Shown here in pieces: positions 5,378 to 59,000 of a stretch of DNA of 64,000 nucleotides (within the stretch, counting starts at the first letter, position 1; each line of letters begins with the position of its first letter). The position numbers and the translations under genes are program-made. Source of the stretch: Botryllus schlosseri (Eukaryota); the NCBI GenBank assembly GCA_051294905.1, contig CM119371.1, positions 41,046,001-41,110,000 of the forward strand, given 5' to 3'. The notes beneath the pieces were generated by a model. It had not been told where the DNA came from. It searched no databases and saw only the letters and a list, made by a program, of their open reading frames with translations.

Positions 5378-5560
5378 TCACCAATACGCTCTTTCGATAC
5401 CGGACATTTTTCCGTGGTCTGCTATCTTTCTGAAAACGATTCGACTCATCCTCCACCTTGGTCGTTTACCCCTGGCTCTGCCGGTGACAACGCACATCTT
5501 TCTTACTTCTGTCCGACAGCTGGCCCGGGGCAGTCTAGTCACCTCCTCGGCGGCAATCAA
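5378..5560 (-). CDS. MRPS14: Mitochondrial ribosomal protein S14, last coding exon
   Basis: TTTCAG acceptor at 5561; LIAAEEVTRLPRASCRTEVRKMCVVTGRARGKRPRWRMSRIVFRKIADHGKMSGIERAYW* is the canonical uS14 C-terminus. Spliced product is 173 aa. Confidence 0.93.
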   Translation of the reverse strand: MIAAEEVTRLPRASCRTEVRKMCVVTGRARGKRPRWRMSRIVFRKIADHGKMSGIERAYW

Positions 5561-7021
5561 CTGAAATAGCAAGAGTGGGGACATCAGCAGATCAGTTTTG
5601 TCTTGGCATTCGATATTTCTAGTTGTTAAATTAGACTAATTACAGTGATATGTTGGCAATCTAATTCTAATGTTATTTGTAGTTCACCTGAAAATGCTAC
5701 AGGAGAACCGTATAGCGCGAAACAAGCCAAGTTTGGTGTACAGACATTTGCCATTCTCTTAATGAGTGCAATCGGCATACAAGCTGGGCAAAGTAGATGC
5801 CGTAACTGAATTTATTTTTGAAAATTGCACCTATTTCAATTGTCGTCACTCATTCTGGGTTAGTTGAGATTATGCACCTTGCAATTTCAATAGCAGTAGT
5901 CAACGCTGGTTAAAGTTTACAGAGATAGAATGTTGAAAATGTCTGCAACGGTAAAGTACACTAACTTCTTCGCAGTCCTCAATCAGCAGGGTCGTAATGA
6001 CTCGACTCGAGTCACGACTTTCTGATGACTCGAGTCATTTACTCAAACACGGAAATGGAATGTCTCGACTCGAGTCAATCTGTGTATTGACTCAACTTGG
6101 ACTCGAGTCATTGCGTATGACTCGAACCAAGTCATATGACTCGAGACTCAGAGCAACACAACAGAGCAACACAATGACTTGGACTCGATCTTGAGTCAAA
6201 ATATCATGACTCAGACTCGACCCTCTGCTTGCTGACTTGGACTTGACTCGGTGGTGAATTGAAAATGACTCCATTTAAAAGTATAAAAGTGAGATTGACT
6301 TGTGACTTGGTTACAACCCTGCTCATTAGTCAGGCTGTAATTATAATACAGTCATGACTACACTCGGACTGAAGTTCTGAAAATCTAGAGCCCCTTAAGA
6401 TATACCATGCCTACAGGATCTGCGTCAGCCGAGAGAAAAGTAGGGAAAACAAAAAACTGTGGATTCCAAAATTTGTCCTGTTCCTCTTGTTGTGTTGACT
6501 AAAAAACAAGTGATCCTTGCGTCTCGACTCCCGAATTACCCACTTTTTAACGATACTGCTGTGTTGTTGACTAGAAGAAAACGAACGTCCGCAATACAGA
6601 TTTCGAGTCATTTGGAGCGTTCTATATTTCAGCCTGTCCAGTGTCTATTAGCCTGGCTGTCAAAGCTATAAAGGAGGACATTTTCGAATTCCTCAAAAAG
6701 GAAGACGAATGGAAAAAGGACATATGGTTACCCTGGGAGAGGAGGGATATTTTGAAAACAGACAATGTTCTAAATTCTAATAGATTAAGGTTAAATCTAT
6801 GACCAATGCCAATGCAACAAGGATCAGATCATCTTGTTAAGATCCCTATAAACAGAAACTTATGCCAGTTACGTTATATTAAAATATGGGTTAGGATAGA
6901 TTTTATTCAATTCAATTCAGTTCCGTTCAATTCAAAAATTTCATCCCGGTAACATCATATTTTGGGATACGATTGTTGATATACAATGTTCTTTTCAATT
7001 CTCTACAAGTTGCTGACAATT

Positions 7022-7055
7022 ACCCCTGACGAGTGTCAGCCGAAAATATTCGGGC
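7022..7055 (+). ncRNA. Minimal hammerhead motif, family 1, in MRPS14 intron 2 (antisense to the gene)
   Basis: acccCTGACGAgtgtcagccGAAAatatTCgggc inside a repeat copy at about 6925-7078. Confidence 0.7.
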
Positions 7056-7428
7056 TCATTTCAATATGAATATACTACCCCGAAGAAGCTTTTCAATTTG
7101 GTACCAATATGTGAATGATGACTTGCTCACAAAACGGGGGAACGGAATCACAAACAAATTTCGGTGTGTCATTGATGACTGAATGTGTGGGCATAATCTA
7201 ATCTAGTATGACGAATGGCTATTTATACAGATTTACGTCGTTTAGACGTGTGCAACAATGGCATAAAGAAACAATATGAACTCGAATGCATTCAGAACAT
7301 GGGATTAGCAGGGGAACAATTATGGATTTTAAAAGGGGTGGAGTCCTGCTTGGAAAGGTAGTAGATGGTTCTCCGAACGTACCACCTTGTCTACACCACT
7401 GGTTACTAAAATTTACAAAATACGTTAC

Positions 7429-11690: not shown

Positions 11691-14600
11691 TTTCTCTGAC
11701 TAAATTGATTCATCGTGCAGAACATGGGATTAACACGTAATAGAATATTCATTGCAATGTGTTTCCAGGGTTGTAACCGAGTCACAAGCCAATCTCACTT
11801 TTATAGTTTTCATTCGAGTCATTTTCTATTCAACACCGACTCAAAGTCATGGTGCATAGGGTCGAGTTCATTTCATAGTGTTGAGACTCGAGTTCGAGTC
11901 ATAGTCTTCAGTCTGTTCGGTCTCGAGTTCAAGTTTTGTTGCACTCAGGGTTGTAATGACTTTTGAGTCCCTAGTCATTTTCGTTAAAATGGAAAATGAC
12001 TCAGCTCGAGTCAACTTGCGTATTGACTTGAGTAATTTCGCATGACTCGACGAATCTGTATGACATATTCAAGTCTCGTATATCAGGACCGATAATTGAA
12101 AGATCGACCCAGTAACTGTCAAAAAACATGTAACTTAAGAGTACAGAAGTGAATGAACCCAATACTGAACAGTGAACTCTATGACTTGGACTCGGCCCGC
12201 TGCTACCTGACATGGCGGTGAATTGAAAATGGCTTGACTTGACTCGTGTCAAAACTATAAAAGTCAAATTGACTTGTGACTTGGTTACAACCCTGGCTGT
12301 ACTCACTTAACTCTTGTGTGACATCGTATGTCTCATTTTTCTAGATTTTAAAATGTTAATTTACACTGGTAAAACAAGAAAGGCTATCAAATTGTAGCAT
12401 TCGAAAAATGACTGCAGTAGAGTCATTACAAACCTGTAGGTTATATTTTGAAATATATTCATTTTGAATATAATATTTGTATGTTGAAATTCTGTAGGTA
12501 CCTCCAAGACTATCTTCATACATTTCTTTACATTCTTCCATGCTTTCTGATCGACTCTCGTCAGGAATCGTCAATACAAGCACAAACAAATTATTGCAAC
12601 TCCATAGTAAGGTATCAGCTGCAAAAATAACAACCCAGATTGGCATGACAACAATGAAACAAGTGAAGCATGGCGATTTATTGGTCAGCCAAATGCCGTT
12701 CATAATTTTCAAGCTTTTAAGAAATTTTTTGTGCCGACATATATTTGATTTAAGGCTTTTGATAAAATTGGCTTCCAACACAATTAGGCCTAGATGGAAT
12801 GTCGAGTGACATTTTAATGAAACGGAATATTGGTTATTGCCATAGTTTGCAAATCAAATTTTGTGACACATGATGTCCTCCGTGTTGGGAACAAGTCGAG
12901 TCACATATCAAGTCATTGCACATTTTGACTAAGTCAAAGAAGGTCACATTTTCGAAATACGAGCCACGATTCAATTCATTGGATTTGGCAAAATGATTGA
13001 GTGACAGATGGAGTCACTATTTAATCCGAAGGGCGTATTATCACTCACACATACCAAGTTCTAACTGCTAATCTACTTAAGTAATCTGCATCGGGTCAGA
13101 CTATAGTTCAGCCAAAATGGCGGATGGAATAAGAAACATAAAACGTTGGAACAAATTGACATGATGCAATGCAAATCCCACCCGCACATCCATTCCATCA
13201 AGTAAAAATCCAGCCTACACTAATTGTTACCGAGTAACATAAACCTCTAAACTATAAAATATCCATTCGATTGAAATCATACAAGGAATTCGTTAAGGAG
13301 CACTGAACAGTAGGGTTGCCCAACAAGAACTTTTTATTACGGGGGATTCACTAATTCAATTGTTTGGTTGCATAAAAATGAACGCCACACACAAAATTTG
13401 GCTCTACTCAAACTGTGAACGCAGAGGACTGAGAGGAGTATAAAATTTTGAATTTACTATAAAAAAAACGACAAAAAATTATAATTTTACTATCAACCCA
13501 AAGAAATTGTTGAGTTGTCTACAAAACCGATGGAAAACAAATTAGACGCAATTCCAACCCGTAGAAGCGATGTTATTTGAGTTTCTCATTCATAATTCTG
13601 GGAGTACCCACCGTCCAGGCTATTTTTGCGATTCAACCGAAATTGTGAAGTGCAATAACGTCGCTTTTACCAGTTGCAAGCCAGCAAAAATTGTTAAACA
13701 TCATTCTTTTAGACAACTTAATTCAATAACTTGAAATAGAGTCAAATTTGGTGTGCAGCATTTTTTTTTAATCAGTGAATCTCAGGAATCTGAAAAAGTA
13801 GGGCGTTAGCTATGGCACAAAATGTGAATGACAGCAAATATAACAATTACTAACACAGTCAGTTTTGTGTTATCAGTCCTTTACAACTCCTATACTTGGG
13901 ACAATATTCAAAAATACAGTAGCACAGGGTCTGTTGAACTTGAAACATATAGTAACCACTAAAACACACAATTCCTGACAATTCAATAGGAAAATAAGGC
14001 ACATCAAAATTTAATGGCGGACCCCCTCCAGTAGTTTCTCTGCAAAGCTTCAAGCACAATATAAAAAATCTTGGCAACCAATTGCAATACTTAACTACAG
14101 TGCAAATATAATCAACCGTCGCGTTAATGTTAGAGCTGGGAAAAATCGAATATCTGAGTGATTCGATTCTGAATAGAGTATTAGGCTTCGAGTCGAGTGT
14201 CACTCGGTATTACTTCACAACAGTATGAATGATGTGGTAAGTTCAAATATGTACCTTTTATGTAACCAGAAAGAATATAATACCAGTTCTACAGCACATT
14301 AAAATAATTTTCAAAGATAATGAATGAATTTAGTCAAAGTTAATGTTAGCTGCATATATTGTAGGCCGCCACTGTGTACCACTGGGCTCATTAGGCCAGG
14401 ACATGATTAATCAGCGCTTGTACATTAGGGCTCTTCAAAAATGACTTTTCTTCTCAAATCGTACTGGCTACTTGATAAAATTGTTAGGTTACCTAATTTA
14501 AGTCTACACACAAAATTTGGTCCAATTCCAGCCAGTAACCGCTTTGCTACAGGAGAAGTAAGTTTCAATTTATTATATAAAAATAAATAATAAAAAATTT

Positions 14601-15060
14601 GAAAATTTTCTGTGTACCCCATGAAAGTGTTAGGCTGTCTATCGAAACGATGCTCACCAAATTTGGTTGAATTCCAACCAGTGGAAGCGGAGTTATTGCC
14701 AACGAAAAATTTGGATTTGAATGAAATAGTATTTACGGTGACCGATTCTTGGTTTATTTATTATAGTTGTGCTCACAGTAAATACTATTCTATTCAAATC
14801 CAAATTTTTCGACGGCACAGGTAATTTATTGTTTTGATATTATAATTAATTTAGAGAATTACTAAGAGGCTAACAGCATTCCACAGTGAAATATAGTATT
14901 GAACCATCAATTTTCATTGATAAATTACCGTAACTCTTCAGGAGCATATAATTTCAGTACCCAAAAAAATCATCACCTCACCACTCGACCCGAATCATTG
15001 CAATTAACACTCGATTCAGATTCGAGCACTCAGATCATTTTACCCAGCTCTAGGCGAGAT

Positions 15061-16197
15061 TCAACTCAAATGCAGATATCCAGCTGTGAACGCAGTAAAT
15101 ATCTTCATCAGTCTGTGTACGGTGTAAAAGTCGATATTTTCACCGTTATCTGTGATCAAGTGCCAGTTTTGCGGAAACGGATAAGTGATCATATGAAGAA
15201 TGGGAACTCTCCTATGAAGAAAAGGGATGTGATCGTCTTGTATGTTGCCTCTCAACGGTGTAACTTGAAAATATTGTATGTTATCATTTAAAGCCTTTTC
15301 AATTCTGCTGATCTCTTTGTAATGCCTAGGAACATCGGTACCACTTTTTAGAATGAAACTAGGATTCTTTTCGCCGAGAAGGTCCAAAAGAACTAACAAA
15401 TCGATCGAATGCAGAGTGTTTTTATCGGAATTCACGCCCGTCGGCCATGATTCCGATTCCCATTTTTTCGCGAGTTCACGAGCCCCGTACAGTGAATCCT
15501 TCGCAGTCCAATCAACGATCGCTTCTTCTCCGTCGAAAAATATCAGCTGCAAGGTTAAATCTGAATGGGAACTCGACAGCATCTGATTGAGGGAATTAGC
15601 AATCTCCACTAACATAGCGCATGGTACGGCTGAATCGGTAGCGCCGAGAAAACCTTCGGGAGTCACTTTTGAATCATAATGACACGCTAGAACTAGACGC
15701 CTGCGTGCAACTGGATTTTTAGTGGCGATCACGTTTGTGAATGTGATCGGATATTTCGAATAACTCGCAGGCGGCATATCTTCGAACGAATGCTCCTCCA
15801 CACTCCATCCAAGCTCTTTCATCGTACGGGAAATGTAATTCTTCACCTTCGTGATATTCTCGGTGCCTGGCTTCCGTATTATCATGAAATTTGGTAGGAT
15901 ATCATTAGTCAGTCGATCCATATTTATGAGATTAAACAGTGATTTCATCTTTTTTCTGGATAAAGTCTGAGCATTCCATGTATGTTTTGCTTCGTGCCAA
16001 AGTACACCCTCAGTGGCCTGCGTTTCCGTTTCCTTCTGAGACAATGAGAAATAAAGGACAATAGCGATACATAGGAGTATCCCGAAAACAGCAAAGAATA
16101 TTCGGTGCTTGGGTCTTCTGGGAATCATCGATCCCATATTTTGAAATTCGGTGCTGCTATTTTTAGAAACTTGCGTTTTACCGCGATGCCTGGCCAT
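15061..16197 (-). CDS. QPCT: Glutaminyl-peptide cyclotransferase (M28 family), type II membrane-anchored isoQC/QPCTL-like, single coding exon
   Basis: 378-aa ORF with LACHYDSK, GATDSAVPCAM, LIFFDGEEA, DSLYGAR, LLDLLG, IQDDHIPF and PFPQNWH motifs. Basic N-tail followed by hydrophobic IFFAVFGILLCIAIVLYFSL. Confidence 0.93.
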   Translation of the reverse strand: MARHRGKTQVSKNSSTEFQNMGSMIPRRPKHRIFFAVFGILLCIAIVLYFSLSQKETETQATEGVLWHEAKHTWNAQTLSRKKMKSLFNLINMDRLTNDILPNFMIIRKPGTENITKVKNYISRTMKELGWSVEEHSFEDMPPASYSKYPITFTNVIATKNPVARRRLVLACHYDSKVTPEGFLGATDSAVPCAMLVEIANSLNQMLSSSHSDLTLQLIFFDGEEAIVDWTAKDSLYGARELAKKWESESWPTGVNSDKNTLHSIDLLVLLDLLGEKNPSFILKSGTDVPRHYKEISRIEKALNDNIQYFQVTPLRGNIQDDHIPFLHRRVPILHMITYPFPQNWHLITDNGENIDFYTVHRLMKIFTAFTAGYLHLS

Positions 16198-17014
16198 AGG
16201 TTTGTTGGTAATTTCTAATTAGTTCACTGAAAACAACGTACAAGTTTCGTTGATATTGTATCACTGCAGCATCACAATAATTAATTTACTTCCAAGTAAT
16301 TTGTGTCGAATTGCACTCTAATCATAGGCGATTGGCATACGATACAATAAATACACACAGTTGATTGAGCTCTCTAGTACGGCTTGGCAAAATCAGAATT
16401 AGAGAGAGAGAGAGAATTTATTCGGATCCATGAACATTGATAATACATAGATAGATAAATACAAAGCAACAATTCAGAACCAGCGAAGGGATCGGGAGAT
16501 CATCGAGTCAGCCACTGCCAGGCTATGATAATGCTGTAATGCAGTGATTCCCAAAAGTCTGTGTGCCGCCACAGGTGTGGCACGAACATTGTCAGATTTT
16601 AGGATAAGAACTATAGGCTAATATTAATATCTATTTTGAAAAAGGCCTGGAGACTATAGAACATGCAACTTAAAGGCGCTTTACCTTATTCAACAGCTAA
16701 TAAATAAGCACATGTGACAATGAAACCAATTATGGCATCGTAATAAATCAAGAATAACAGCTATATAAATTGTAATTGGAATTACCCACTAAAAAATTTC
16801 TGCAAAATAAACTAGGCGACAGCTTATTCTTTCTAAAGAAACTGTTGCCTATTTTCCTGGTAGCACTTGCTACACATCTGCAATGAGCTGAAACAAGTCG
16901 TCATTAGACCAACGTACATGTGGATATTTTTGACATCCGAATGTGCCATTAACGATTTCCGATTCACATTATATTTTTGATATACAATTAAATAGTATAT
17001 TCATATTGAAATGA

Positions 17015-17048
17015 ACCCGAATATTTTCGGCTGACACTCGTCAGGGGT
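17015..17048 (-). ncRNA. Minimal hammerhead motif, family 1 (inverted twin)
   Basis: Exact reverse complement of 17132-17165. Confidence 0.75.
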
Positions 17049-17131
17049 AATCGTCAGCAACTAGTAGAGAATTGGAAAGAACATTGTATATCTTTCCAAT
17101 CTTTCCAATTCTCTACTAGTTGCTGACGATT

Positions 17132-17165
17132 ACCCCTGACGAGTGTCAGCCGAAAATATTCGGGT
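17132..17165 (+). ncRNA. Minimal type I hammerhead ribozyme motif (Penelope-like pLTR), family 1
   Basis: ACCC-CTGACGA-G(tgtcagc)C-GAA-AATATT-C-GGGT: intact CUGANGA/GAAA/UH core, 4-bp stem I, 1-bp stem II, palindromic stem III. Confidence 0.75.
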
Positions 17166-18721
17166 TCATTTCAATATGAATATACTATTTAATTGTATAT
17201 TGAAGTTCTGTACCTCCACGAAGCTCTTCAATTATATTTTTGCAAGAGTCATATGGAGTGTTGACAACTCGGCGCAGATACACCTCCGCCACGCCTATCG
17301 ACGATCAATGAAGCCGAACCCTATGCCGCGTAATTCAATTTAATTTATCGCTAAAAATTTGATCATTTCAATACACCACAACCACAAGATTGCGATACGA
17401 TGAAAGATAGGACGGTGTAGAAACGACTTGGAATAGTCCTCGAAATCAAACACCCACCTGGCCTAGGCGATGTAAAAATGCTATTAAAATACTGTGGTAT
17501 AATGTGGTTAGTTGGTTACAATACTCAACCCATTTATTACTTGGTAACAATTTTCTTGGTGCCCAGTTTCTATTGGTTAATTAGTTGCAGTTACTGTGAA
17601 TGCCGGCTTCCTAGTTTCTTGATATTGTTTTATATTTCATCATTCGGCTAGTGTTGTGTTGTTTCGTTCTGTTCAGGCGCAGAAAGCGCGGACTTATATG
17701 TTGCAACAATTATCCATGGTAGAGCTGACTTGCTGATCTCCTCTTCGCTACAGGAGGGTTCCACATCAGCATAAAGTTTACTCCATTTTCTATTCATGCA
17801 TGTTTCTGTCGAACAGAATAACCGATTCTCTCTATCTTTCTCTAATGCAACCGAAATTAGTAATTAATTAAGCATGCATGAGAGAACAACAGATCACATT
17901 TGGGTTATTTGGTCTGGCTGCAGTGCTAGGGGACTGCAGAAAGCGCGGAAATAGATAGCGCCGAGGAGGCCAGGTAGTGTTTAATGGTCAGTGATCGAAT
18001 TTTCACCTCTAACGTACTTCATAACTTCATTCCTGGACTTTTTACGACTATTCCGTGCTGATTTTAGGCAAGGTAGTGTGTATCAGGGTTGGGTAGCATG
18101 GGAAGGGGGATATTCGGGCTGGGTAGCATGGGAAGGGTTCAAGGGGGACATTAGGGTTGAAGGTGGGTTAGGGTATCCCAAGATTAGGGTTGGGGGTGAT
18201 GGATATTAGGGTTGGTAGGGGGATATTAGGATGGGGGAAGGGAGGGCCCAGTGTGCATATATTTTCTAGTACCCTGCTTATGATAATGAACTCTGATTTG
18301 ACAGGAGCTGATGCAGACTTTGATCTTAGTTGTATTTCTTCCTAATCCGAATTTAATTCAATTTCAAAGTTTCCGCGAGTTTATTAATTCTAATTCTAAT
18401 TAAAAGTTTCTTGGGGTACAGAATTTCAATATACATTTAAATAGTATATTCATATTGACCGGGTTGCAATCCCGGTACGTTTAGCGTAATATCTTTGGTG
18501 TGCCAAGACGGTTCTCAGCGTCACACCTGGTGTGTAGTCAGTAGAATCTTTGGTGTGCACGAGACACCGATTCCATATTGGCATATTGAAATGAACCTGA
18601 ATTTTTTTACCGACACTTGTCAGGGCTAATCGTTAGCAAGTATGATAGAGAATTGGAAAGAACATTGTATATCAACAATCGTATCACAAAATATGACGTC
18701 AGCGGGATTAAATTTTGAATA

Positions 18722-21129
18722 CCGTAATTTTCCATGTGTAATACGCCCTCATGTAGGCTATAATAGGACCCAATGGCTTGTAGATTCTGGGGCAAAGTCT
18801 GTATACTCGTATACTTGCAGTACATGCGTAATTGTCGATTATACAAGTTTCTTGTGTTGACGAACTTGTTCGTGTGATGAGTTACGACGGTTATGTTTTA
18901 GTATTATTGGAAATCGATTAAACGATTGTAGACAGAAGCCATCGAGGACCGAGAGGCGATAGTTCGGCCCGTCAGCGATATCATGCTCACCAGACCTATT
19001 GTAGAAGAAATTGTTCAGGCCAGTGTAACCAGGCCTGTTGCAGATGCGGCTGTTTAGGCCAGTGATGATATCCTGCACACCTGGCCTGTTGTTGACGAGA
19101 TGGTTGCCAGTGAACTCGGCCCTTGACGAACTCGGCCTATTGAACTCGGCCCATGAGCCATGACGAAATCGGCCTATGACGAACTCGGCCCGTGGGGAAT
19201 TTCTTAGTATTAATGATTATAAACGTCGTAAATTGTATTATTTGTCATAGAAAATGGTTAATTTGGGAGCGATGGACATGTCGTACGAATGCTGGGGGGA
19301 GGGCAGTATTGCAGTTCTCGGAATTGGAAATTTTACTTGCCGCTGTCGAGATTGCCAGTGAACTCGGCCCATGATGAACTCGGCCCATGACGAACTCGGC
19401 CTGATGACGAACGTCACCGACGAGATAAATCGAACTAGCAAGGATTGTGCGCTCGTGCGGCAATCAATGGCCTAATGTCGCTCGCGTACAAATGGCAAAG
19501 TAACTCAGCGGGAGCTTGCGAGCTGTCCGGCAGAGCAGACGAATCGCGATAAATGGCATAGCCCAACACTGATAATACAAATCACTAGGCCGAATGATGG
19601 ACTGTGATGCGTGATTGACAAAAACATGAACACTACAAAAAATAATTAGACAAGTTTGGTCTGAAATCGATTTTTTAGCAGAAAAAGTCTTAAAGACAAA
19701 TTAGTCTTACCAAGTAATTTCTGTCTCAAATCGATTTTTTAGCAAAAAAAGTCTTAAAGACAAATTAGTCTTACCAAGTACTTTCTGTCTTAAAAGTAAG
19801 ACCGGAATTGATCGAAAACAGTAGGGGTGCTTTGGGGGCATCCTTTTCAATGCTAGGGTCTGAGCGAAGGGGAAGCATGAGAGAGACCAGAATTTGCAGT
19901 GTTGGGATGATACTGTACTAAGGAGTTCACACGATATTCACTAGATATAGTTATCAAGGTACATGCCACTTACTACTCACATGTACTATTCAGATCAATA
20001 TATATATGGTTGTCTGAGTCGAAAATAGCATTTATGGTGAGTGGGTAAAATGAGACCAAAAATACTGCACAATTCGTCTTGAAAACAAGACCAAAAAAAC
20101 TGAAGCATTAAAAATTATCTCGATAAACTAGCTGTGTCTGTGAAGTCCTTAGATAAGTATTGTCCCATGGTCTCTCTCACTCCCCCCCTTCACTCACAAC
20201 CTAACATTGAAAAGGATGCCTCCAAAGCAGTGCTTCTATTATCGATCAAGTTGGGTCTTACTTTTGAGATGGAAAGTACTTGGTAACACTAATTGGTCTT
20301 CAAGACTTTTTTTTCTAAAAACCGATTTGAGACAGAATGTAGGCCTACTTGGTAAGACTAATTGGTTTTGAGACTTATTTTTCTAAAAAATCGATTTGAG
20401 ACCAAATTTGTCTAATTTTATGCTCTTGGTCCATGTCAACTTTCCGGTCTCATTTTCAAGACCACAAACCATGTTGTTTCTTGATTAGCGAAATCCGACT
20501 TAAAAACAAGACCAAAAATACTGACACATCAAAAACTGTCTCAAATAGCCAGTTATGTCTTATGCTCTTGGCCCATGTCAACTTTCCGGTCTCATTTTTA
20601 AGATCACAAATCATGTCATTTCTTGATTAGTGAAATTTGTCTTAGAAAAAAGACAAAAAATACTGACACATCAAAAACTGTTTCAATAAGCTTGTTATGT
20701 CTTAGAGCTCCTGACCCATGTCAACTTTCCGGTCTCATTTTTAAGACCACAAATCATGTTGTTACTTGATTAGCGAAATTTGTCTTAAAAACAAGACCAA
20801 AAATACTAACACATCAAAAACTGTCTTAATAAGCACAATATGTCTTATGAGATGCTTTTTATTGGTCTCATTTTTAAGACCAAATAATTGTGACAATTAT
20901 ATATGGTCTTAAACAGCTGAATCAGTCTCAATTTTAAGACCTCAATTCATCAGTGAGACTGAAATTGCTGAAAATGAGACCAAATCATCCTCATTTCTTA
21001 AATTTGAGACCAAATTTGTCTAATTTTTTTTGTAGTGAAGAACGGTGCGTTGTGATTTCTAGTTCTTTTTCAAGGGAGATTTTTTTCAAGAATTCTTTTC
21101 CCATGTGCATTATGCATTGATAATTACGG
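18722..21129. mobile_element. Tc1/mariner-pogo type non-autonomous element (TA-CCGTAATTTTCC ends) carrying nested insertions
   Basis: Ends CCGTAATT...AATTACGG. Same family at 45172-45988, ~27470-27798, ~32680-33335. Confidence 0.65.
19631..21037. mobile_element. CACTA/EnSpm non-autonomous element
   Basis: TIR CACTACAAAAAA...TTTTTTGTAGTG; 2-bp AA duplication relative to the empty site seen at 27661. Subterminal AGAC/GTCT repeats, three ~142-bp tandem units (20418-20850), internal inverted repeat. Confidence 0.85.
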
Positions 21130-22452
21130 TGGTCAGGACGAAGAGAGTGTGAAGATTCCTGTATAAAATTTCGAATAATCGGGAGCTTGAGCGCTCTCAC
21201 TGATAATTCGGAATTTCATGCTTGTGACGTCATATTTTGTGATACGATTGTTGGTATACAATGTTCTCTCCAATTCTTTACTAGTTGATGACGAGGGTCA
21301 GCCGAAAAAATTCAGGTTCATTGCAATATGAAAAAAACTGATTTTAGTAATTCTAATTCTGAAGTGGAAAATATTTCTAGTTGTTCAACTCTGATGGATT
21401 CATTTATTTTGTGACATCAGTGAAATTTCAGTACAGATTGAAGTGACTATAAGAGAAGCGGTGAGGACTCGTAGCTTAGACAGTAGAAACAGTACCCATT
21501 GTGCAGTGAAATCAATTGAATCTATGTTGGCCTACTATGATGTTTCAAACTGTTTGGAGAAGTTTGATAGTGCAACTTTTTCTATTTTTCATGCACATTT
21601 TTACTGCAAGTTTATTCAGGTAATGCGCAAAATGGAAAGGAATGATTTAAAAAAACATGCTATAAACTATTTTCATTGTGGTTCTATTCTCTTTGATCTG
21701 CATAACAAATAGCTATGCTACGGACCAGCTGCATCGCAATGTTACCTATGACGCAATGACTGGCACGAACAATATGTAAATAGATCGGCTCATTGATACT
21801 GTAGTTTGAATTTGAGGTAGTTAACTATTTCACGGCTGCCCAGGAGAGACCACCAAAATTACATTTTTAGCGGAAAACCTTTTCAGGCAATTGATTTTGT
21901 TGAACTCGCCAAAGCAAATTTTTATGCAATGCCTTGGGTCAAGTTTGCAAACCCAAGGTTTTTTCCGTGTGGAATTTGACTTGTTTTAAGGGAGAGGGGA
22001 TTGTTTTTAGGGAGAGGGGAAGAGGGTTATCGTTATGCTGTTTGAGAAAGATATCTCCGCAGGATAAACCTTAAGAACATAGAATATATATAGCGACTTT
22101 TCAATTAGAGTAAAATGAAAAGGGCAAAAGAAAACAGGAAACAAAAAAAACATCAAGATAATCAGTTTTAGGCTCGTATTAAGCGTCTCCAACGTAGATG
22201 AAAATAGGTCAACATAGAAGTGTATACATGATCGTGATCGATTGAATATAGTGAGGAAAGAAGCAGAACAAGTAGTCACCCTGCAATTCTTGAAGTGTTA
22301 GGTTATACATCGAAACCTTTCGACTATCTCACAGCTTAATAATTTAATAAGGATTTTAGATGCAACTTTTGTTGAAAGTCAAGTTGCCCTAGTCATAAGA
22401 TTTGTTTGGTATTTCGTTTCTCGGGAAATCTGTAACCCTGCTCTGTATAGAC

Positions 22453-23821
22453 CAGTGGTTCCCAACGTGGGCGATATCGCCCCCCAGGGGGCGATTTGGC
22501 GGTCTAGGGGGGCGAAAATAACGAAGGGGGCGAAAACGGACGAAGGGGGCGATAGGGGGCGAAAACAACAAAGGGGGCGATAGGGGGGCGATTGCGCGTT
22601 AAAACGGCTATATTGGAGTCAGGACCGTAACTGCCGCACCCAAAACCCTCAATTGGGGTCCGAACTCGAAGGGGGCCCAAAATTATTTCGTGAATTAACA
22701 TAAATTATGGAGTATTAATTAGAAATTCATGCAACTATTTAAAAAAAATTGTCATATCAAATATTGTCATTGATTTCGGGGTACCCTTCCCCCAACAAAA
22801 ATACGCATGATTTAAGGAAATGGAGACTTCGGCGTCGGCCATTGCTGCGCCGCGACGCACCAATGCATATGAAGTTATAGGCCATGTAACATGTAACATG
22901 CAACTCCGAGAAGTGTGCCATAACGATAAGCAGCGAGACGACCTTGGGCGAAAAGGAATGCCCTTGCGCTGACCGAAAACTTCGATATACATATATGTTG
23001 AATTGTCCTTAGGCGCCTCAGTGGCTGGCGTCGAATGTTCCTGTCGTGGCGGTCTGAACCCTACAAGACCAATGCCACCCCGCAGGGAAAAATTATATGC
23101 CACTAAAGAAACTCCCATTTGAAACAATATGCGTATTTTAGTTTGGTACGTTTTGGTGATACCCATATCTTTTGACATAGCAGATATAGGAGGTCACGAA
23201 CTAGCATCATGTAACGAAGTCAATATAACAAAGTGTCCACCCGAAGATGTTTAATTATTATTTAGGGTTACTACCTTTTCCAACAAACCACACTCAGCTC
23301 TACCGATAAATTTGATTACTTGAGCAGAGAGAGCATAAAAAATTGATGGAGATATATATGCAATTCACGACCATATTGACCGATTGAAGCATGAATTATA
23401 TAAATTTGTCGCGTTTCGAGCGTTCAGGCGAAGTACGGTGACTCACCAGACAGTACATGAAATAGGGTATAGCTTATATGTAGCGAAAAAAAGCCCACTG
23501 GTTGAGTGGGTCTAGGGTTTGGTTTATCACTCTATCAGGGCCCAAGACCAACGTTTTTTTGGGGGGGGGCTGACGAAGTGCTGTTACGGTCCTGATGGGA
23601 GTCAAGTCGAAGAAATGACCTTTTTTTTAGTAAATTCACGAACATTTAGCTGTAGAAGTGTGATTTCGAGGTAGAGCCGAAAAGTTGACCTTTTTCAATT
23701 AGTCAACTCGCCGGTGATCCCAGATTGTATATCCATTTTTTGGTTCCCAATATTTGGGGGGCGATGATCGGCGTGGAGCTTCAAAAGGGGGCGATGAGAC
23801 GAAAAAGGTTGGGAACCACTG
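22453..23821. mobile_element. hAT (Buster/Charlie-like) MITE with nested hAT at 22620-23594
   Basis: TIR CAGTGGTTCCCAAC, perfect TSD GTATAGAC. Inner TIR CAGGACCGTAAC, TSD ATTGGAGT/ATGGGAGT. Confidence 0.9.
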
Positions 23822-23896
23822 GTATAGACAAACATCGCAGAGAGAGAGAGAGTTGGTGTCAGACTTCTGGAATCACCCCCTCGCACAATGATTAGA

Positions 23897-24243
23897 CAGT
23901 GGTTCCCAACCTTTTTCGACCCATCGCCCCCTTTTCAAGGTCAACACCGATCATCGCCCCCCAAATTTTGTGTACCGAAAATTGGGCATACAAACTGTAA
24001 TCACCGGTGGGTTGACTAAAAAAAAAAGGTCAAATTTTCGGCTCGACGTCTAATTAGACATACTTTTGTAACTAAATTTCCGTGGGTTGACTAAAAATAA
24101 AGGTCAGCCGTTTTGACACGCCATCGTCCCCTTTGCTATTTTCGCCACCCGTCGCCCCCTTTGTCCATTTTCGCCCCCCTGTCGCCCCCCTAGACCGCCA
24201 AATCGCCCCCTGGGGGCGATATCGCCCACGTTGGGAACCACTG
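23897..24243. mobile_element. Inverted second copy of the CAGTGGTTCCCAAC MITE
   Basis: Same TIRs and internal sequence in opposite orientation; flanked by GATTAGA repeats. Confidence 0.9.
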
Positions 24244-24580
24244 GATTAGAGTATTGTACTGCTATGATTCGAGTAATTGGGGATGGGGACAATTTTTTAC
24301 GTACTGAAATGAGTGAAATCGTATGCCGCTTTCTCTACTAGTTGCTGACGATTACCTATGACGAGTGTCAGCCGAAAATATTCAGGTTCATTTCAATATG
24401 AATATACTATACAATTATGGCTTCGTATGGAAGCATGTATAGCATTGGCGACTGAGGTTATTGCAAAGTTATACCTTGAATACACTGCAATGAAAATAGG
24501 TCAAATGTTATGGCATAGTTACACCGACATTTATTGCCTCTCTAAGCCGAACAGCGCAATAGTGAGACTATCGTCTAGTA

Positions 24581-32632: not shown

Positions 32633-33773
32633 GTCTTGAGTCACCTACAAGAATCAAGTGACTTGACTTGACTCGAGTCACCTCGATTTGATGTCTTTTG
32701 TTTGCGATGTCACTGTTGGACCATCATGACATAACGTAACAGGTAACGGGAACGTCCTTGTCTCTAAACGATTTTAGATAGGAGCCAAAGCCTACGAGGC
32801 CCGAGATGCGATAGCTCAGGCCAGTAACGATATCACTCGCACCCATCGCCATTGCAGATGCAATCGGTCAGGCCAACGATTATATCGTCCGAACCAGACT
32901 TATTTGATGGGAATATTCAGGCCATCTGGACCAGGCCTGTTGCAGATGCAAATGTTGAGGCCAGCAATGATATCATGAGCACCACCTGTCCTGCTGTAAA
33001 TGCGATAGTTCTGGTCTGTTGTCGACGCGATGAATCAGGCCAGCAAAGATTGCCGAGGATTTAGCAATGAATGACCTAATTTCGCTTGCGTACAAATGGC
33101 AAACCAACTCCGTAGGAGATCGCGTGCTGTGCATACGAATCTCTTTAATTAGCAACGCGATTTCCGCTGATTGACATTACTCAAGACTAATGATACAAAT
33201 TAATGGGCAGGATGGCTAATTGTGATGCGCAATTGACGACAAACAAGATGAAAGGTGTGATTTCAAGGGAGATATTTTCAAGAATTGTACTCATGCATAG
33301 TGCACCCCTCCCCGGGGTGAAATTTTGTGCGGTAATTCTATTTCTAGTTTCGAATTTTGAAAAATGAGTACATTGGTTCTAGTTGTGAATTTCGGTAAAT
33401 GTCCAATTTATACAAGTCTGGGTGTAGAACTGACGTTATCTTATTTGTTGTTTCATGAAAGGTGTAATTTGAAATTTACGCCTCATCCTTAAAATCATGA
33501 CACCATACTTGGTGATATTCGACTCAAATCATAGGCCTAATACTAGATTCTGAATAGAATCACTCGGATACTCGATTTTGTCCATTCCTACCCATAAGTG
33601 TGGAACAGCATATTTTAGCCACCAGACCACACCAATTATGGAGTTCTGTGTGATACATGTGCAGTAGACTGACTTTTGTTTTGAGTAGACACCTGCTCTA
33701 ATATGTGATTGTTTCTTGTTCAGACCCATATAGAAGTATAAGTTCTGTGGTTTTGGTAAATATTTGTCTGCAA

Positions 33774-36753: not shown

Positions 36754-36790
36754 ACACAAGCTTTCGGAGCGCAGCTCCTTCATCAGGTGT
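36754..36790 (-). ncRNA. Minimal hammerhead ribozyme motif, family 2 (Penelope-like pLTR)
   Basis: Reverse complement ACAC-CTGATGA-A-GGAGC(tgc)GCTCC-GAA-AGCT-T-GTGT followed by AATAAA. Confidence 0.8.
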
Positions 36791-37592
36791 TCTGAAGAGA
36801 CGATTATTGAAGATTAAACTTAATTCGTTTTCTAGAAAGCTTGCCAAACTCAAACTCGAGCAGTCGCGCTCAGCTGAGTATAGGCTGACTTCAACTTCAT
36901 ATGAGCAAATTTTTGATATATGAAGATTTGGAGAAATTCCAACATGCCAGTCATTCATTACTTTATAGCTTTGGCAGTAGCCTGTGCGCTACGTAGCTGT
37001 TATTGATAGCTGGCGAACTGCACAGCCTAAGACAGACTTAGATGCAATATAGGTTGCCCGGTTTCGCCCTCTATTTGGCTATAAATCAACACAATTTAAT
37101 TCATTTCCAAAACTGATCAAATTTAGCATGGCACTACAGAACGACGCCATGCTCTCTGTAGTCACGACCAGCATCAGGATTAGTGTCAGTGCAACCTACC
37201 TTGAAATTAATTGGTGTCCTTTTCAATGTTTTTTTGTTATTTTCAAACAAGTTTGGGGAAGTTTATCAGCAATGTAAAAGACTAAACAACTGGAATGCGG
37301 ATTCAAAATTGGCGTAAGATATACCTTATGTATACTATCAGATCAGGGGTGGGCAGCCTGTACGGGCACATGCGGCCGTAGAAGGGAATTTGTGCGGTCG
37401 TCGACGCCTAATTCAATTAGTGTGTGTTGGTAGCCGTAGACATGCAAATTGCAATTACGAATTCACTGCCGAATTTTCGAGAGATTTTATTCAATCTTGA
37501 AATTTTCTTCGCGCTCGGCGCAATTCAACAAGACTTCATTTTTCGATTTTAATGCAGTAGCGCCCTTCTTAATTGGAGCAGGAATGGGAATA

Positions 37593-44323: not shown

Positions 44324-46379
44324 ATGAACTGTCTCTACTACAATGATCATTTTACACCGACGCAATATCTTTTATTGTGATTCCGTACCTGCTGACTAGT
44401 GGCAGGGCTCAACTCAGGCTTTTTTAAAACCTATTTATTTGTCCGTCTAATCTTGGATTGCACGATGCATTGAATAATCAGAGTGTAAAGCTGATATGTT
44501 AGCAACGGTGTGCCTATCGAATGCAAACATGGAATGGCAACGACTGATTTTTCAGCTCCGTTCCGGTTCGCTGAAGGCTTATTCAGTCTTACTTTGCGGC
44601 TGCTACTGTGGGATTTCTTGCAATCCACAAGTTATCTTCCAGAGCGCGGAATTCATTGAATCTGGTCTTGATCGAAAGCTACTGTCGCACTGAATCCGAA
44701 AATATAAAGTAAGATATGATCAGGCGCTGAACCACGCAGAATTCGCCCTCTAAGTCTGAATTACTGGCATTGTCCGAACTATCAAAGAGCTGCAAGAGGT
44801 CATTGTTTTGCCTTCATCCCATTGTTCTTAACAATGCAGATTTTAGATGTTGAGGGAGATTTTTCATCTAGGTGCGGATCTTGACCTTATTTTCAATTAT
44901 ATTTTCGGAACAGAGCGACAGTAGCTTTCGATCAAGACCAGATTCAATTCTGCGCTCTGGAAGATAACTTTTATATTGCGAGAAATCCTACAGTCGCAGG
45001 CGCAAAATAGGACTGAATAAAGCTTCAGCAAACCGGAACGAAGCTGAAAAATACTCTTTACCTCGTAGAACATTATAAATGGGTTACTATGTTGTCAGTA
45101 TGTTATGATTTCGATTATAAGCTTCTAATAATCTCAAAGCGTTTTTTTGTACTTCTTTGGTGAAATGGGTACCGTAATTTTCCATGTATGATGCGCAACT
45201 TTTTACCGATTTTTAGCCCAAAAATAGGGGGTGCGTCTTATACATGGGTACAGCGAGCCTTGAAAAATAAATTTCTCGATCAAAAACTTGAAAGCACACC
45301 TTTCTTCATGTTTGTTTAAATCACGCATCACCTCTAGCCATTGGGCCCCGAAATTCGTATTATAGAGTGTAACACGCTGCCAAATAGAGATGCGTGTTGC
45401 CAATTACCGAAAAGCGTGTTTCTAATTAACGAGAGTCGTGTGCAAAGCACGCGATCTCTTGCTGAGTTGGTTTGCAGTTTGTACGCGAGCGAAATCAGGG
45501 CGTTGATTGCAACAAGCGTGCGCAGCAGTCCTCGTTGATTCACCGCGTCAACGACAGGCCTAATCAATCACATATACAAGAGGCCATGTGCGCAAGATAT
45601 AATCGCTTGCGTAATCAGTCGCATCTCCAACAGGACTGGTGCGCCCGACATAACCGTTGGCCTGAGCAATCGCATCTGTAATTGTAATAGGTCACGTGCG
45701 CAAGATGTCGTGTGTCGCTAGCCTGAACTATCGTGTCGCCGACCTCACAGGCTTTGGCTACTATCTACTTTCGTTTAGAGAGAATGTCGTTAATTGTTTT
45801 ATGATTAGCGATCATTATGTCATGATTGCTCGACAGTGACATCGCAAAACAGAACAACATCGAATACTAAACCGCAACTTCATGTACTCATGTACTGCGA
45901 ATGCAGGGTGCGTACTATACATGGGTACAGGCTTTTTTCCAGAATATACACATCATTTTGGGGGCGCACTTTATTCGGAAAATTATTGTAATCATAATTT
46001 TGAAGCATTTTTTTCTTTTAGTGACTGTATTGGTAAAAAATTCATTTCATATATATCACAATACCTCTGGATACCAGGCAATTGTGAAGATCCAGTCACA
46101 TGAATAAGCCTTGCTTCTTGTTCCACATGTACTGATCTGCTATGTTTCTACATTGCTAGTTGATAGAATCTTCCCACTGTAAATCAGATCAGATGTTGTA
46201 CATACATTGAACTATTTTTTTTTATAATTACTAGAGTTGGAAATATTTGCCTACATAGTTTGTGGAAAATATTACTTGAACTTTGAACTGGAATACTTGA
46301 GAGCTCGTATGTTATCGCCACTGTCACTGATATAAGCGTGCGTTGTGTTGACCTGCGATGATCGGTATCACGAAAAAAG

Positions 46380-54890: not shown

Positions 54891-56018
54891 TGCACATTGG
54901 ACTGGGGGTTTTCATCAAATTACTGCTAATTCTTTTCATATTTCGAGTTTCGAATCGTGTACGAAAACCCATCATATATTAAACACCTTCGCTGTGCCTT
55001 ACGTTATAAATTGTCATCTCTTTTCTCAGTCTGGAACGCCATGTTAGTTTCTCTGAAACATAATCCGAGTCGGTGATGGGCATCACGAGATCGTCATTAT
55101 TGCAAGGCAAATTGTGTGATCTACGGTCATGGTGCAAACTGCTTAATACTTTCTGTATAGCAAGAAAGTGCCAAATGTGCTCGCCATGGCGCTCTGCTCA
55201 TGAGTTTAGTGACTGCATTCTTGAAGCCAAATTTGGTTCAATTCTAACAAGTATAGGGCTCCGCAGATCCAATTGAATTTTTTAATTTTAACTAGAAAAT
55301 TGAAAAAAAATTAAATTTTTCTGTCAAGCCCATGAAATTGTTGAGCTGTCCGCAGATACCATATGCAAAACAAATTTGACTCAATCCTTGATTGGTGGAT
55401 AATCCGAGGATTATCAACGAAAATCTCCAATTACTCAGCTTCTACTAGTTGGAATTGAGTCAAATTTGTTTTGCATGGTCTCTGAAGACAGCTCAACAAT
55501 TTCATGGGCTTGACAGAAAAATTTGAATTTTTTTTTTCAATTTTCCAGTTTAAATTAAAATATTCAATTGGATCTGCGGAGCCCTATACTTGTTAGAATT
55601 GAAACAAATTTTGTGTGCAGCGTTTTTTAGGGCAGCCTGACGATTTAAGAGGTGACCGGCTTCAATCGAAAAAAAAGTTTTTTAGGGAACAGCCCTACTG
55701 TACAGTACATAGATTAAAAAGAATTCTGCATCTAAATTTTCGTACTACGTAGAATCACAAGTAGGCGACATACTGAATCATTCATAGTACTGCACTCTAT
55801 TATCAAGTTTTCTGATACATGCATTATTCTGAAAACTGCGATCATGGGCCAGGATTGGTGTTGTGTAATATACAATTTCTTGTCGGGTCTTGAAGCCATG
55901 TAAATAAACTTACTTTGGTCCAGATTGATTTTCATACCAGCGACCAACGTATGCATACAAATTTACAGCTATCTTTTCGGTGGAAATACATTTGTATAAT
56001 ATATTCATATTGAAATGA

Positions 56019-56052
56019 ACCCGAATATTTTCGAGTGACACTCGTCAGGGGT
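56019..56052 (-). ncRNA. Minimal hammerhead motif, family 1
   Basis: Reverse complement reads acccCTGACGAgtgtcactcGAAAatatTCgggt. Confidence 0.7.
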
Positions 56053-59000
56053 AATTGTCAGCATCCACCGACCCTCGACCTCGGTTACCTTCTTCTCAGG
56101 CTGCCGTTCGTTCATTGCCCTACATGTGATCTGAAGGCACTAAGATGAACTCATACAAACACGCCTTAGTTGTTCAAGGAGGAGATTTAACTGTTATCTA
56201 AATAACATAAATGACCAGACCACTGAGGACTTTGAATAGACCAGAAGGGGGAAAACTATTTTGTCCTGTCCACGAAAGCAGAAACGTTATAAAAATATTG
56301 ATGGACTGCCTCTGAAATCTTGACTTGACTGACATGATATTGAGGGCGCTTTTCAGCTTTGACGTTCAAGACGACGCACTGTGAGAGATTAGGGTTGCTA
56401 AACATTCCAGAAAGTCAAAGCAACAACTTTTTCAAAAAAATTGCCCGCTAGGCGCGATTTCAAGTTGCCAGATATCTTGATTTGAGGGTACTCTTTCTCC
56501 AAGAAAAAATACGCATTATTTATAGAAAAGGTCATACCGGCGTTGGCCATTATCACGCCACGATGCACCAAGAAATATAAAGTTTTAGGCCACGTAACAT
56601 GCGACTCCGATAAGTGTGCCAGAACGATTGGCAGTGAGAGAACCTTTGCCGAAAAGGACTGCGCTTATGCTGACCGAAAACTTGTTATATATAAGCCTAC
56701 AAAATACCAGGGTTGTAATTGTAACCAAGTCACATGCAATGTTCCCTTTAATTTTTTACGATTCTGCGCGCACTAACCAACCCACTGCGCTGTACCTTGG
56801 ACTTAGAAAAAGGTCATCAGTCTGGATGTTTTGTGTGCAACTTGGAATTTCTTTGCCCAGAGACCGTGTAAGCTCTACGAAATTGCGCACGTGCGCAGCT
56901 TAGACTTGAAGGAACATTGGTCACAAGTCAATCGCACTTTCATAGTTTTGACCCGAGTCAAGTCGAGTCATTCACCACCGAGTGAAGTCCAAGTACAAGT
57001 CATCGAGAAGAAGGACGAGTCCAAGACATTGTATTGACTGCTCAGTTTCCAGTTAAAGTCTTGTTTAAACCCACTTTTTATAGGTCTAAAACATTGTTGA
57101 GTGATATCGAATAGTTCGCATTTATATTATACTAATTTCCATCACTTTCATCAGTTTCTGGTCGAATTTGGAAGTACCATTATTAATACATGAAATCCAA
57201 AAAATGTGGTTACTGAACCATTCTTTGAAATTATAATGAAAACTGGGTCCTGACCTGGCGGAGTCAAGTCGAGTCATTACATAATCGCGACTCGAGGTGA
57301 GTCATTACAACCCTGCTAAATAGGCCTACTTACAGGTTAAATCGTCCATAGGCGCCTAAATGACTGACGCCGAAAGTTACATTCTTGGAAATCTTAACCT
57401 CACAAGACAAATACCATCCCGCAGGAAAAATATGTGTCAGTGAAGAAATACCAATTTGAAATCGTTTGTGTCTTTTAAATCAGCCTGATTTAAACCAGAA
57501 CCCTATGCACAGATCGTTATTTCCACGTATATCATGTCGTGTATATAGGCTTGCCATATTTTGGAAATGTAAAAAGAGGACACTTTTTCAGAAATTTCAG
57601 ACATACAAAACTGGGTTGACTAAAAAAAAAAGGTCTTCTTCTCGCTCAGAGCTCAAAATAACGTTTTTCTCTCCACATTGCCAGATGGATGACCAAAAAA
57701 AAAGGGTCTTCTTTTCGCTCAGAGCTCAAAATAACGTTTTTCTCTCCACATTGCCAGGTGGATGACTAGAAAAAAAAGAAAAAAAGGGCGCATATCACTC
57801 GCATTTTCCTCTAAATTTGACCTAAATTTTCAAAAAAGAGGACAAAAGGGCGTCGTCCAAGGACACTTTCAAAAAAGTCGAAAAAGAGGACAAATCCTCT
57901 TAAAAGAGGACGTATGGTAAGCCTAGTGTGTATGCCGCAGTAAACATCAAGGACAAAAATATACAACGTCCTGACCTAACTACTTTGTCATTGACTCTCT
58001 CTGCCTCAGTGGCGAAATCGCGACATAGCACTCTGGAAAAGTAGTAGGATTGTGCCGCTTGTAATATATCGTCTCCGGTCCTGGCTAAACAAAACACGAT
58101 CGGGACTGTGTGAAGATTGAACACTGAACATGAACAGAACAATTTCATCAGACTTTGCACGTAAAACGACCCAACTGTTTCAGAGAATATCGAATAATAT
58201 GTTTGCAATCACAATCAAGAAGGTAGGACATGGTAGGGTAATTTGTTCGAAAACGTCAGTTCAGCATGTTTAATGACTGCAGTCTTTTTTTAAAAATTTT
58301 ATGCAACGACTCGCCTTAGTCGCCTGAAAGTGTTTTTGAAAGTATAAACAACTAAATCGAACTGCTGAAACAGAGGACATTTTGGCATTTTTAGCGCCCT
58401 CGGGGCACCATTCACTTTTATTTGAGAAAAAGAGGACAAATCATCCTAAAAGAGGACATATGGTAAGCCTACCGGCATTAATCCAAGCCTAACCAAAATC
58501 CGAGATAAGTTGTGTGAACATCCGAGATAAGTTGTGTGAATTTACTGGTTACACTTTTAATCGACGAAGTATAATGCAATGAAATAAATTCTCTTTTTCT
58601 CTCTCTCTCTCTCTCTGCTCGTCGAATCGCTGGGCGTATCGGAGGCGTTGCCCCGTGCTTCTGTGAAAGCGGAGGATAGGCCCTGCATCATTGTATCAGT
58701 GCTATTGACTCGTGGGATGGTGGCAATTGCCGGCTAAGGCCTGTCAGATATTACGGCGCTCGTTGCTAATCTTATTATCATGCATTCTAGTTCTAAGAAA
58801 CACGTAGAAGATAGAGGTCGAATATTCGGGTGTCCAGTAACTGCTTTTTCTCTCTTTCTGTGGACAAGTTATGGTCATGCTGACTTAGAAAGTGTTGTAA
58901 CACGAGAAAGAAGCGTGAGGAGCTGTATTTTTAATCCAATAATGTTTTCCAAGGCTATTAAAAGCGCTTCACTTGTTTGTTGCTCAGTAAACATATGTCT

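Follow-up and report, generated by a model that had tools for sequence, protein, structure and literature searches.

A polymorphic head-to-head insertion of a short repeat with a hammerhead motif, very probably of the Penelope-like class, in Botryllus schlosseri

The 64,000-nucleotide stretch of Botryllus schlosseri DNA analysed here (the window) contains a real, polymorphic, minimal insertion of the Penelope-like element (PLE) type, whose architecture is known and which is new only as a member of its family. The full insert was 251 bp in length (16980–17230) and was located between two copies of a 12-bp target-site duplication (TSD), ATTATATTTTTG, which the initial annotation had missed; the extent given there, 16980..17200, was too narrow, since a 30-nt tail present in the right copy only carries the insert to 17230, where the TSD flanks it. 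This TSD and the one-sided tail are the best evidence at the locus. The TSD match at both boundaries was exact, with a chance probability of about 2e-5 over 49 registers, and the 12-mer was found once more in the window, at 36544. The insert consisted of an antisense copy (16980–17092), 7 extra bases of a duplication and a sense copy (17100–17230), in which both repeat copies were 5'-truncated and no ORF was present. The features of the locus were as follows.

16968–16979, plus strand: left copy of the TSD ATTATATTTTTG, identical to 17231–17242 and single in the empty allele
16980–17092, minus strand: inverted copy of 113 bp, 5'-truncated and tail-less, 96% identical over 100 bp to 6978–7077
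17015–17058, minus strand: hammerhead motif of the left copy (descriptor match, mirror of 17122–17165), with C3 at 17044 and a predicted cut after 17019
17081–17099, no strand: spacer of 19 nt read from the sequence, made of 12 nt of the left copy and a 9-nt duplication with a 2-nt TC microhomology overlap
17100–17230, plus strand: direct copy of 131 bp, 5'-truncated, reaching the family's long 3' end (alignment of window copies, and loose ends of contigs and reads from other loci at 17229–17231)
17122–17165, plus strand: minimal type-I hammerhead motif of the right copy (descriptor match and fold)
17176–17229, plus strand: open frame of 18 codons by translation, from an ATG just past the ribozyme to the tail end
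17201–17230, plus strand: one-sided 3' tail of 30 nt, in the right copy only, found also in the 18-kb copy and, with a deletion, in the 7-kb copy
17231–17242, plus strand: right copy of the TSD, whose first three bases, ATT, also match the family 3' end (microhomology)

The arms at 16980–17080 and 17100–17200 were exact reverse complements separated by the 19-nt spacer, and the zero mismatches noted earlier were confirmed, with 101 of 101 bases paired. The second-longest perfect inverted repeat in the window (spacer ≤100 nt) was 23 bp, and the longest arising by chance was 10–15 bp in 30 order-3 Markov simulations of the window. The spacer had been described as the continuation of one copy plus a 9-nt duplication, which was borne out: its 12 nt at 17081–17092 extend the left copy and have counterparts in the family copies at 7, 18 and 21 kb, and the duplication TCTTTCCAA at 17091–17099 repeats 17100–17108, having TC in common with the end of the left copy. 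Each arm was accompanied by family sequence absent from the other (12 nt at the centre and 30 nt of tail), matching independent copies. In addition, the two ends of the left copy coincided with the 9-bp internal inverted repeat of the family, ATATACAAT/ATTGTATAT, which forms the terminal stem in the predicted fold.

The comparison among individuals proposed in the initial annotation was made with four of 24 listed sequencing runs, which were compared with a 4.5-kb stretch around the insert, and an empty allele was found in another sample. In X5, obtained from a different sample, contig record 10 (962 nt, depth 73) joined 16967 directly to 17231; bases 329–774 of this contig corresponded to window 16517–16967, and bases 775–962 to 17231–17418. 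The contig lacked 263 bp, equal to the 251-bp insert and one 12-bp TSD copy, and its boundaries matched the assembly to the base. Because it crosses without exactly the insert and one TSD copy, the site is a presence/absence polymorphism, and a traceless loss of the insert is unlikely because one TSD copy is also missing in the empty allele. The flanks of the X5 contig showed 10 differences and 5 gap letters in 639 bp when compared to the window, and the insert thus probably postdates a haplotype split of about 2%. The earlier view that the insertion is recent was thus upheld by the empty allele, and the zero arm mismatches alone bound the arm divergence only below about 2.9%. In X1, 16979 was the precise end of one contig, and the empty allele's base at 17279 was present in a minor contig (depth 4.1 of 14.7); these observations suggest that the sample is heterozygous for the insert, and X1 may be the source of the assembly itself. 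X8, which is labelled as another organism, agreed with X5 in the base at 17279 and in how far this base lies from the end of the piece, which hints weakly at an empty site in X8 as well. Neither the centre junction nor the right junction of the filled allele occurred among the rows listed, so these two are without direct read support. Over the neighbouring QPCT region (14902–16286), the X5 haplotype showed 76 differences and a 19-base gap (about 5.5%), a divergence that indicates very high polymorphism or deep clades.

The insert arms are copies of an abundant repeat of about 190 bp, for which five further loci were found in the window, 75–95% identical to the arm.

6930–7099, plus strand: solo copy with an intact hammerhead core and an internal deletion in the tail region (similarity and alignment)
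18398–18723, minus strand: older, decayed copy with tail, split by a 123-bp insert (alignment)
21204–21335, plus strand: decayed copy with a 13-nt deletion between two TGACGA repeats (alignment)
24331–24416, plus strand: short tail-less copy, C3 changed to A (alignment)
55983–56063, minus strand: short tail-less copy with an intact core (alignment)

A faint additional piece of the family was present at 12458–12518, and nhmmer with a profile of the window copies gave no copy beyond those in the profile except one match at E 0.34. Three copies had a common 5' limit about 45–50 nt upstream of the left copy's end, giving an apparent unit near 190 bp. The 3' ends fell into two classes, tailed (the right copy at 17 kb, the 18-kb copy and the 7-kb copy, which bears a deletion) and tail-less (the left copy at 17 kb and the copies at 24 and 56 kb), and the 21-kb copy ended earlier than either class. 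Loose ends at 17229–17231 and 17189–17199 agreed with these two classes, with one more at 17218 (24 of 1690 rows). The contigs matching the 4.5-kb stretch numbered 27,589 in X1 and 29,366 in X5, and the summed depth over the arms, which is not a copy number, was 744,153 as compared to about 11 in the unique flanks; the arm depth together with six loci in 64 kb points to a family of about 10^4 copies. Among the 15 joints listed (569 others), 7 linked antisense to sense family sequence at other points, with depths of 72–320 in X1 or X5. Since these 7 joints, by their short sides (20–28 nt), fit no copy of a single orientation, head-to-head joins recur elsewhere in the family; joints with short sides often arise from repeats, and undetermined letters may lie between the two sides. 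Regarding TSDs at the five other window copies, matches of only 6–7 bp were seen at four and none at one, which is not convincing. Motif scans for relatives with flanks returned 0 in metagenome contigs and 0 in genome contigs. The 123-bp insert inside the 18-kb copy (18459–18581) had an 8-bp flanking duplication, CATATTGA, and was unique in the window and repetitive in the sequencing runs. We also observed TGACGTCA, which we take to be a CRE/ATF-like site, at 18694–18701 and about 21225–21232 in the 5' part of the repeat unit, where it is a candidate internal promoter element.

The arms carry a hammerhead motif with a predicted cleavage site. The sense reading of each arm was ACCC-CUGACGA-G-UGUCAGC-C-GAAA-AUAU-UC-GGGU, giving a full core with a 4-bp helix I. 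In the right motif, helix I was formed by ACCC (17132–35) and GGGT (17162–65), followed by CUGACGA (17136–42), G10.1 (17143) and C11.1 (17151), GAAA (17152–55), the palindromic helix III AATATT (17155–60) and C17 (17161). The type-I core, i.e. C3, U4, G5, A6, G8, A9, G12, A13, A14, A15.1-U16.1 and H17 with helices I–III, was therefore present at 17132–17165 (numbering as in PMC4209133). Local helix II was a single pair, and a 6-bp pseudoknot between GCTGAC (17122–27) and GTCAGC (17145–50) is possible. With helix I of at least 4 bp, the descriptor matched 3 of the 7 family copies, a fourth having 3 bp; across the whole window it matched at 4 places (3 in the family and 1 at 36786 in another family), and the background was 2 matches in 200 simulated 64-kb sequences. 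The motif of the other family is a second minimal hammerhead (36758–36800, minus strand) with CUGAUGA, an unpaired A, a 5-bp helix II (GGAGC/GCTCC), a palindromic helix III (AGCT) and a 4-bp helix I, and was single in the window.

Rfam gave 0 matches in the window at the gathering score, and at E up to 10 for 17085–17260 it gave no hammerhead and only chance matches to mir-301 and sR55. In the 6 close copies available for covariation, 91% of 56 cells were paired and 1 of 11 pairs was changed on both sides, which was not significant among such close copies (203 of 500 shuffles reached the score). The lowest-energy predicted fold of the monomer was a non-hammerhead one, and in a self-cofold of the 43-nt monomer the dimeric hammerhead was not the lowest-energy form. 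No sharp RNA end was seen among the matches listed. Minimal PLE hammerheads are thought to act as dimers and to be slow in vitro (PMC4209133; PMC6765202), and an active hammerhead with a one-pair stem II and a 6-bp pseudoknot has been published (PMC3088659; PMC10085705).

Judging from these features, the insert behaves as a member of a non-autonomous PLE family would, and very probably is one. PLEs have been described with an inverted pLTR, a TSD of 8–10 bp, an optional 31-bp tail on one pLTR and head-to-head palindromes (PMC3846280), the one-sided tail being 30–40 bp in a further account (PMC8557442), and in Schistosoma opposite-strand hammerhead pairs lie 100–700 bp apart (PMC4209133). At the present locus we observed an inverted 5'-truncated copy placed head to head, a tail at one end only (17201–17230; 30 nt vs the 30–40 bp expected), a TSD of the variable-length kind in an AT-rich site, here 12 bp and single in the X5 empty allele, and the hammerhead motif in the pLTR-like unit of both arms, in agreement with the initial annotation, which had called the palindrome two head-to-head ribozyme-bearing Penelope-type repeats. 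The direct, partial-tandem arrangement of pLTRs was absent from the locus; such absence is expected for a twice-truncated insert, and this copy is therefore unlikely to be a source element. No RT or GIY-YIG domain was found by Pfam in 93 window frames (of 115 frames of at least 75 aa), the other 22 being frames that share sequence with the zinc-finger or QPCT coding regions. A protein search with the frame behind the ribozyme, a weak query of 55 aa with only 18 derived from the element, gave no homologue. As the search yielded no RT/GIY-YIG ORF linked to the family, its assignment to the PLEs is a structural one; pLTRs alone suffice for mobilisation of PLEs in trans (PMC3846280). The 18-codon frame is possibly the start of a parent ORF, as described for other pLTRs.

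We consider it likely that a single round of retrotransposition produced the insert from a short Penelope-type repeat lacking an ORF, which was mobilised in trans by the RT/GIY-YIG protein of a PLE, with both target ends priming. Either a solo unit resembling a pLTR (about 190 bp) or the pLTR end of some longer parent would have served as template. The endonuclease would make a 12-nt staggered cut in an AT-rich site beginning with ATT; then, the bottom-strand end, through its 3-nt homology to the family 3' end, would prime reverse transcription at the outer start point with the tail included, and the top-strand end would prime from another start point, 30 nt inside the first, with neither tail nor Watson-Crick homology. 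The two cDNAs would stop within about 10 nt of each other, one of them slipping and recopying 9 nt, and would anneal at TC/GA before fill-in, so that the palindrome would be a by-product of insertion and not a selected structure. The junction sequences and microhomologies were observed directly, and the cut geometry and priming are what we infer. Because the inverted and direct parts overlap by 101 nt, two templates or the re-use of one would be needed. In vitro, the Anolis PLE protein, which prefers ATT, cleaves and extends both strands; its reverse transcription begins without homology, at two sites between which the tail lies (PMC11167929).

The same PLE-type insertion might instead have been made from a single cDNA by template switching or self-priming, a route that we regard as rather unlikely. 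Here, the top-strand end would anneal just upstream of the 9-bp internal inverted repeat, copy it and jump to its other half, after which the ribozyme domain would be copied backwards, and a 9-nt stutter would accompany the return to the cDNA at TC; a replicative version of this route after insertion is also possible. Both ends of the left copy fall precisely on the halves of the family's internal stem. The flank end agrees with the family sense sequence at 6 of 7 bases, so that the left junction fits this route equally well, and antisense priming finds no Watson-Crick match; the identical arms suggest one template, one joint from another locus (17039 to 17145, 5 shared letters) lies on an internal hairpin, and self-priming was favoured for the junction palindromes described in PMC3846280. 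On the other hand, two switches are needed as compared to one join, and the solo copies at 24 and 56 kb, which lack the tail and stop at almost the same position, show that the left end does not call for a special event. Template switching, as put forward in the initial annotation, is one of two workable mechanisms, but two-ended priming fits too, and this locus alone cannot separate them. The 5' truncation mentioned there for inverted pLTRs applies at this locus to the direct copy too.

It is very improbable that the assembly misrepresents the centre of a real insert (collapsed or folded-back reads) or contains a spurious second arm. Assembly often goes wrong at perfect palindromes, and the centre junction was not among the rows listed; nevertheless, in a fold-back the flank would be mirrored, but the right arm runs into 30 nt of genuine family tail and then the TSD, and the empty allele agrees with the assembled boundaries to the base. 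Assembly problems have been pointed out (PMC8557442). A simple fold-back artefact was rejected by the tail, which is absent from the left copy, and by the empty allele. A non-LTR retrozyme was likewise rejected, as 0 of the 6 family loci in the window were head-to-tail tandems; one tandem-type joint from another locus was among the joints listed, and 98% of the RNA matches in X23 ran into unlike sequence, indicating copies embedded in other transcripts, while small circles could be lost in the library. A foldback or Mutator-like MITE is hardly credible and was also rejected. In such a DNA transposon the 101-bp inverted repeats would be terminal and the TSD 12 bp long; the length of the arms and a TSD size near the Mutator range speak for it. 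Against it, the right inverted repeat is not terminal and is followed by a 30-nt asymmetric tail before the TSD, the window contains 5 further solo copies of the arm sequence, truncated to varying extents and in one orientation, and the other head-to-head joins have different centres.

The neighbouring gene was as follows.

15061–16227, minus strand: uninterrupted QPCT-like (glutaminyl-peptide cyclotransferase) frame matching Peptidase_M28, with ATG at 16191 and a candidate acceptor at 16227

Its best named match was from Styela clava (51% identity over 100%), which points to a stolidobranch ascidian as the probable host. The distance of about 750 bp upstream of the QPCT acceptor in the initial annotation was reproduced as 753 bp to the candidate TTTTCAG on the minus strand at 16227. 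Trans-splicing affects roughly half of all genes in Ciona, where a median of about 455 bp precedes the first acceptor (PMC11155486); with 753 bp here, the empty site may thus be situated in an outron or intron, in the promoter region or beyond the transcription start. An RNA across both arms was predicted to form a single long hairpin (−187.7 kcal/mol) which, provided that both arms are in one RNA, would bury the ribozyme fold, as had been anticipated; if the QPCT primary transcript spans the site, the filled allele would add 101 bp of perfect dsRNA. In X23, the one RNA run, about 2 reads fell on the QPCT coding region, no splice joint was among the 15 joints listed, and almost all of the 2282 matching reads were family copies from other loci, so X23 is uninformative on QPCT structure and editing. 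Transcription of the site, an influence on QPCT and the cruciform proposed in the initial annotation would, in vivo, be conjectural at present. Separately, 51 X23 reads with loose ends at 17186 had one flank in common (agreement 0.81), pointing to one expressed family copy elsewhere. Other features of the window were C2H2 zinc-finger coding frames clustered at 33700–54900 in tandem 84-bp units, an uninterrupted ribosomal protein S14p/S29e frame (5381–5635, minus strand; 52 of 54 profile positions; a gene or a processed copy), and imperfect MITE-like inverted-repeat pairs unrelated to the present family (14697–14817, 19736–20321, 23665–24053, 44547–45052 and 55229–55611; arms of 45–157 bp, 84–95%).

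The locus is one of many repeat insertions and is probably neutral. More tentatively, and with some doubt, it could represent a currently active, ORF-less, Penelope-derived SINE-like family in an ascidian, of about 10^4 copies, with a fixed 5' end, a pseudoknotted hammerhead and head-to-head inserts that record two-ended priming at two RT start sites; if so, thousands of junctions and empty alleles could decide between two-ended priming and self-priming from genome data alone. The transposition cycle of PLEs is still called undefined (PMC8557442), and the value of this 251-bp insert as a specimen is that it combines all the PLE junction marks with an empty allele exact to the base and comes from a family with enough copies for statistical work. 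PLE-type hammerhead repeats are hereby shown in an ascidian; a literature search, to which most subscription journals were outside, gave no paper on such repeats in ascidians, and none on twin priming in Penelope head-to-head structures.

Several known systems resemble this insert in part. In LINE-1 twin priming, both target ends prime, leaving inverted and direct parts within one TSD and microhomology at the join. The present insert is alike in its proposed two-end priming, single TSD and microhomology join, whereas LINE-1 inversions copy different parts of one RNA and here the parts overlap. Non-LTR retrozymes (PMC7229834; bioRxiv 10.64898/2026.07.22.740005) are alike in being non-coding, short and AT-rich, with a type-I hammerhead, a proposed PLE origin and dispersed monomers, but they are defined by head-to-tail tandems giving circular RNA, and none of the 6 family loci in the window is such a tandem. 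Minimal PLE hammerheads (Cervera and De la Pena 2014, PMC4209133) share type I, the 4-bp helix I, G10.1-C11.1 and the palindromic helix III, and occur mostly as dispersed single motifs with some opposite-strand pairs; unlike them, the motif here has no unpaired base after A9 and no local 6–8-bp helix II, in place of which stand 1 bp and a possible 6-bp pseudoknot with the leader, a type known from other hammerheads (PMC3088659). PAc/Poseidon of Anolis carolinensis (PMC11167929) also has a hammerhead beside the ORF start, an AT-rich ATT target, two 3' end classes bounding the tail and, in vitro, extension of both strands, but is autonomous with its ATG at stem II, whereas the family here has no known protein and its ATG follows the cut site. 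The endonuclease-bearing PLEs Pen2a, Pen2 and Pen3a of Adineta vaga (PMC3846280) have a pLTR of about 200 bp, an inverted truncated partner placed head to head, a junction palindrome, an empty allelic site, an ORF start inside pLTR and tail, and pLTR-only mobilisation in trans. Their TSDs are 8–10 bp and their tail 31 bp, vs 12 bp and 30 nt here, and the present insert has no ORF, no second direct pLTR and far more copies. In contrast to their palindromes of 15–38 bp, both copies here are truncated with a 101-bp overlap, and nearly all of the insert is palindromic.
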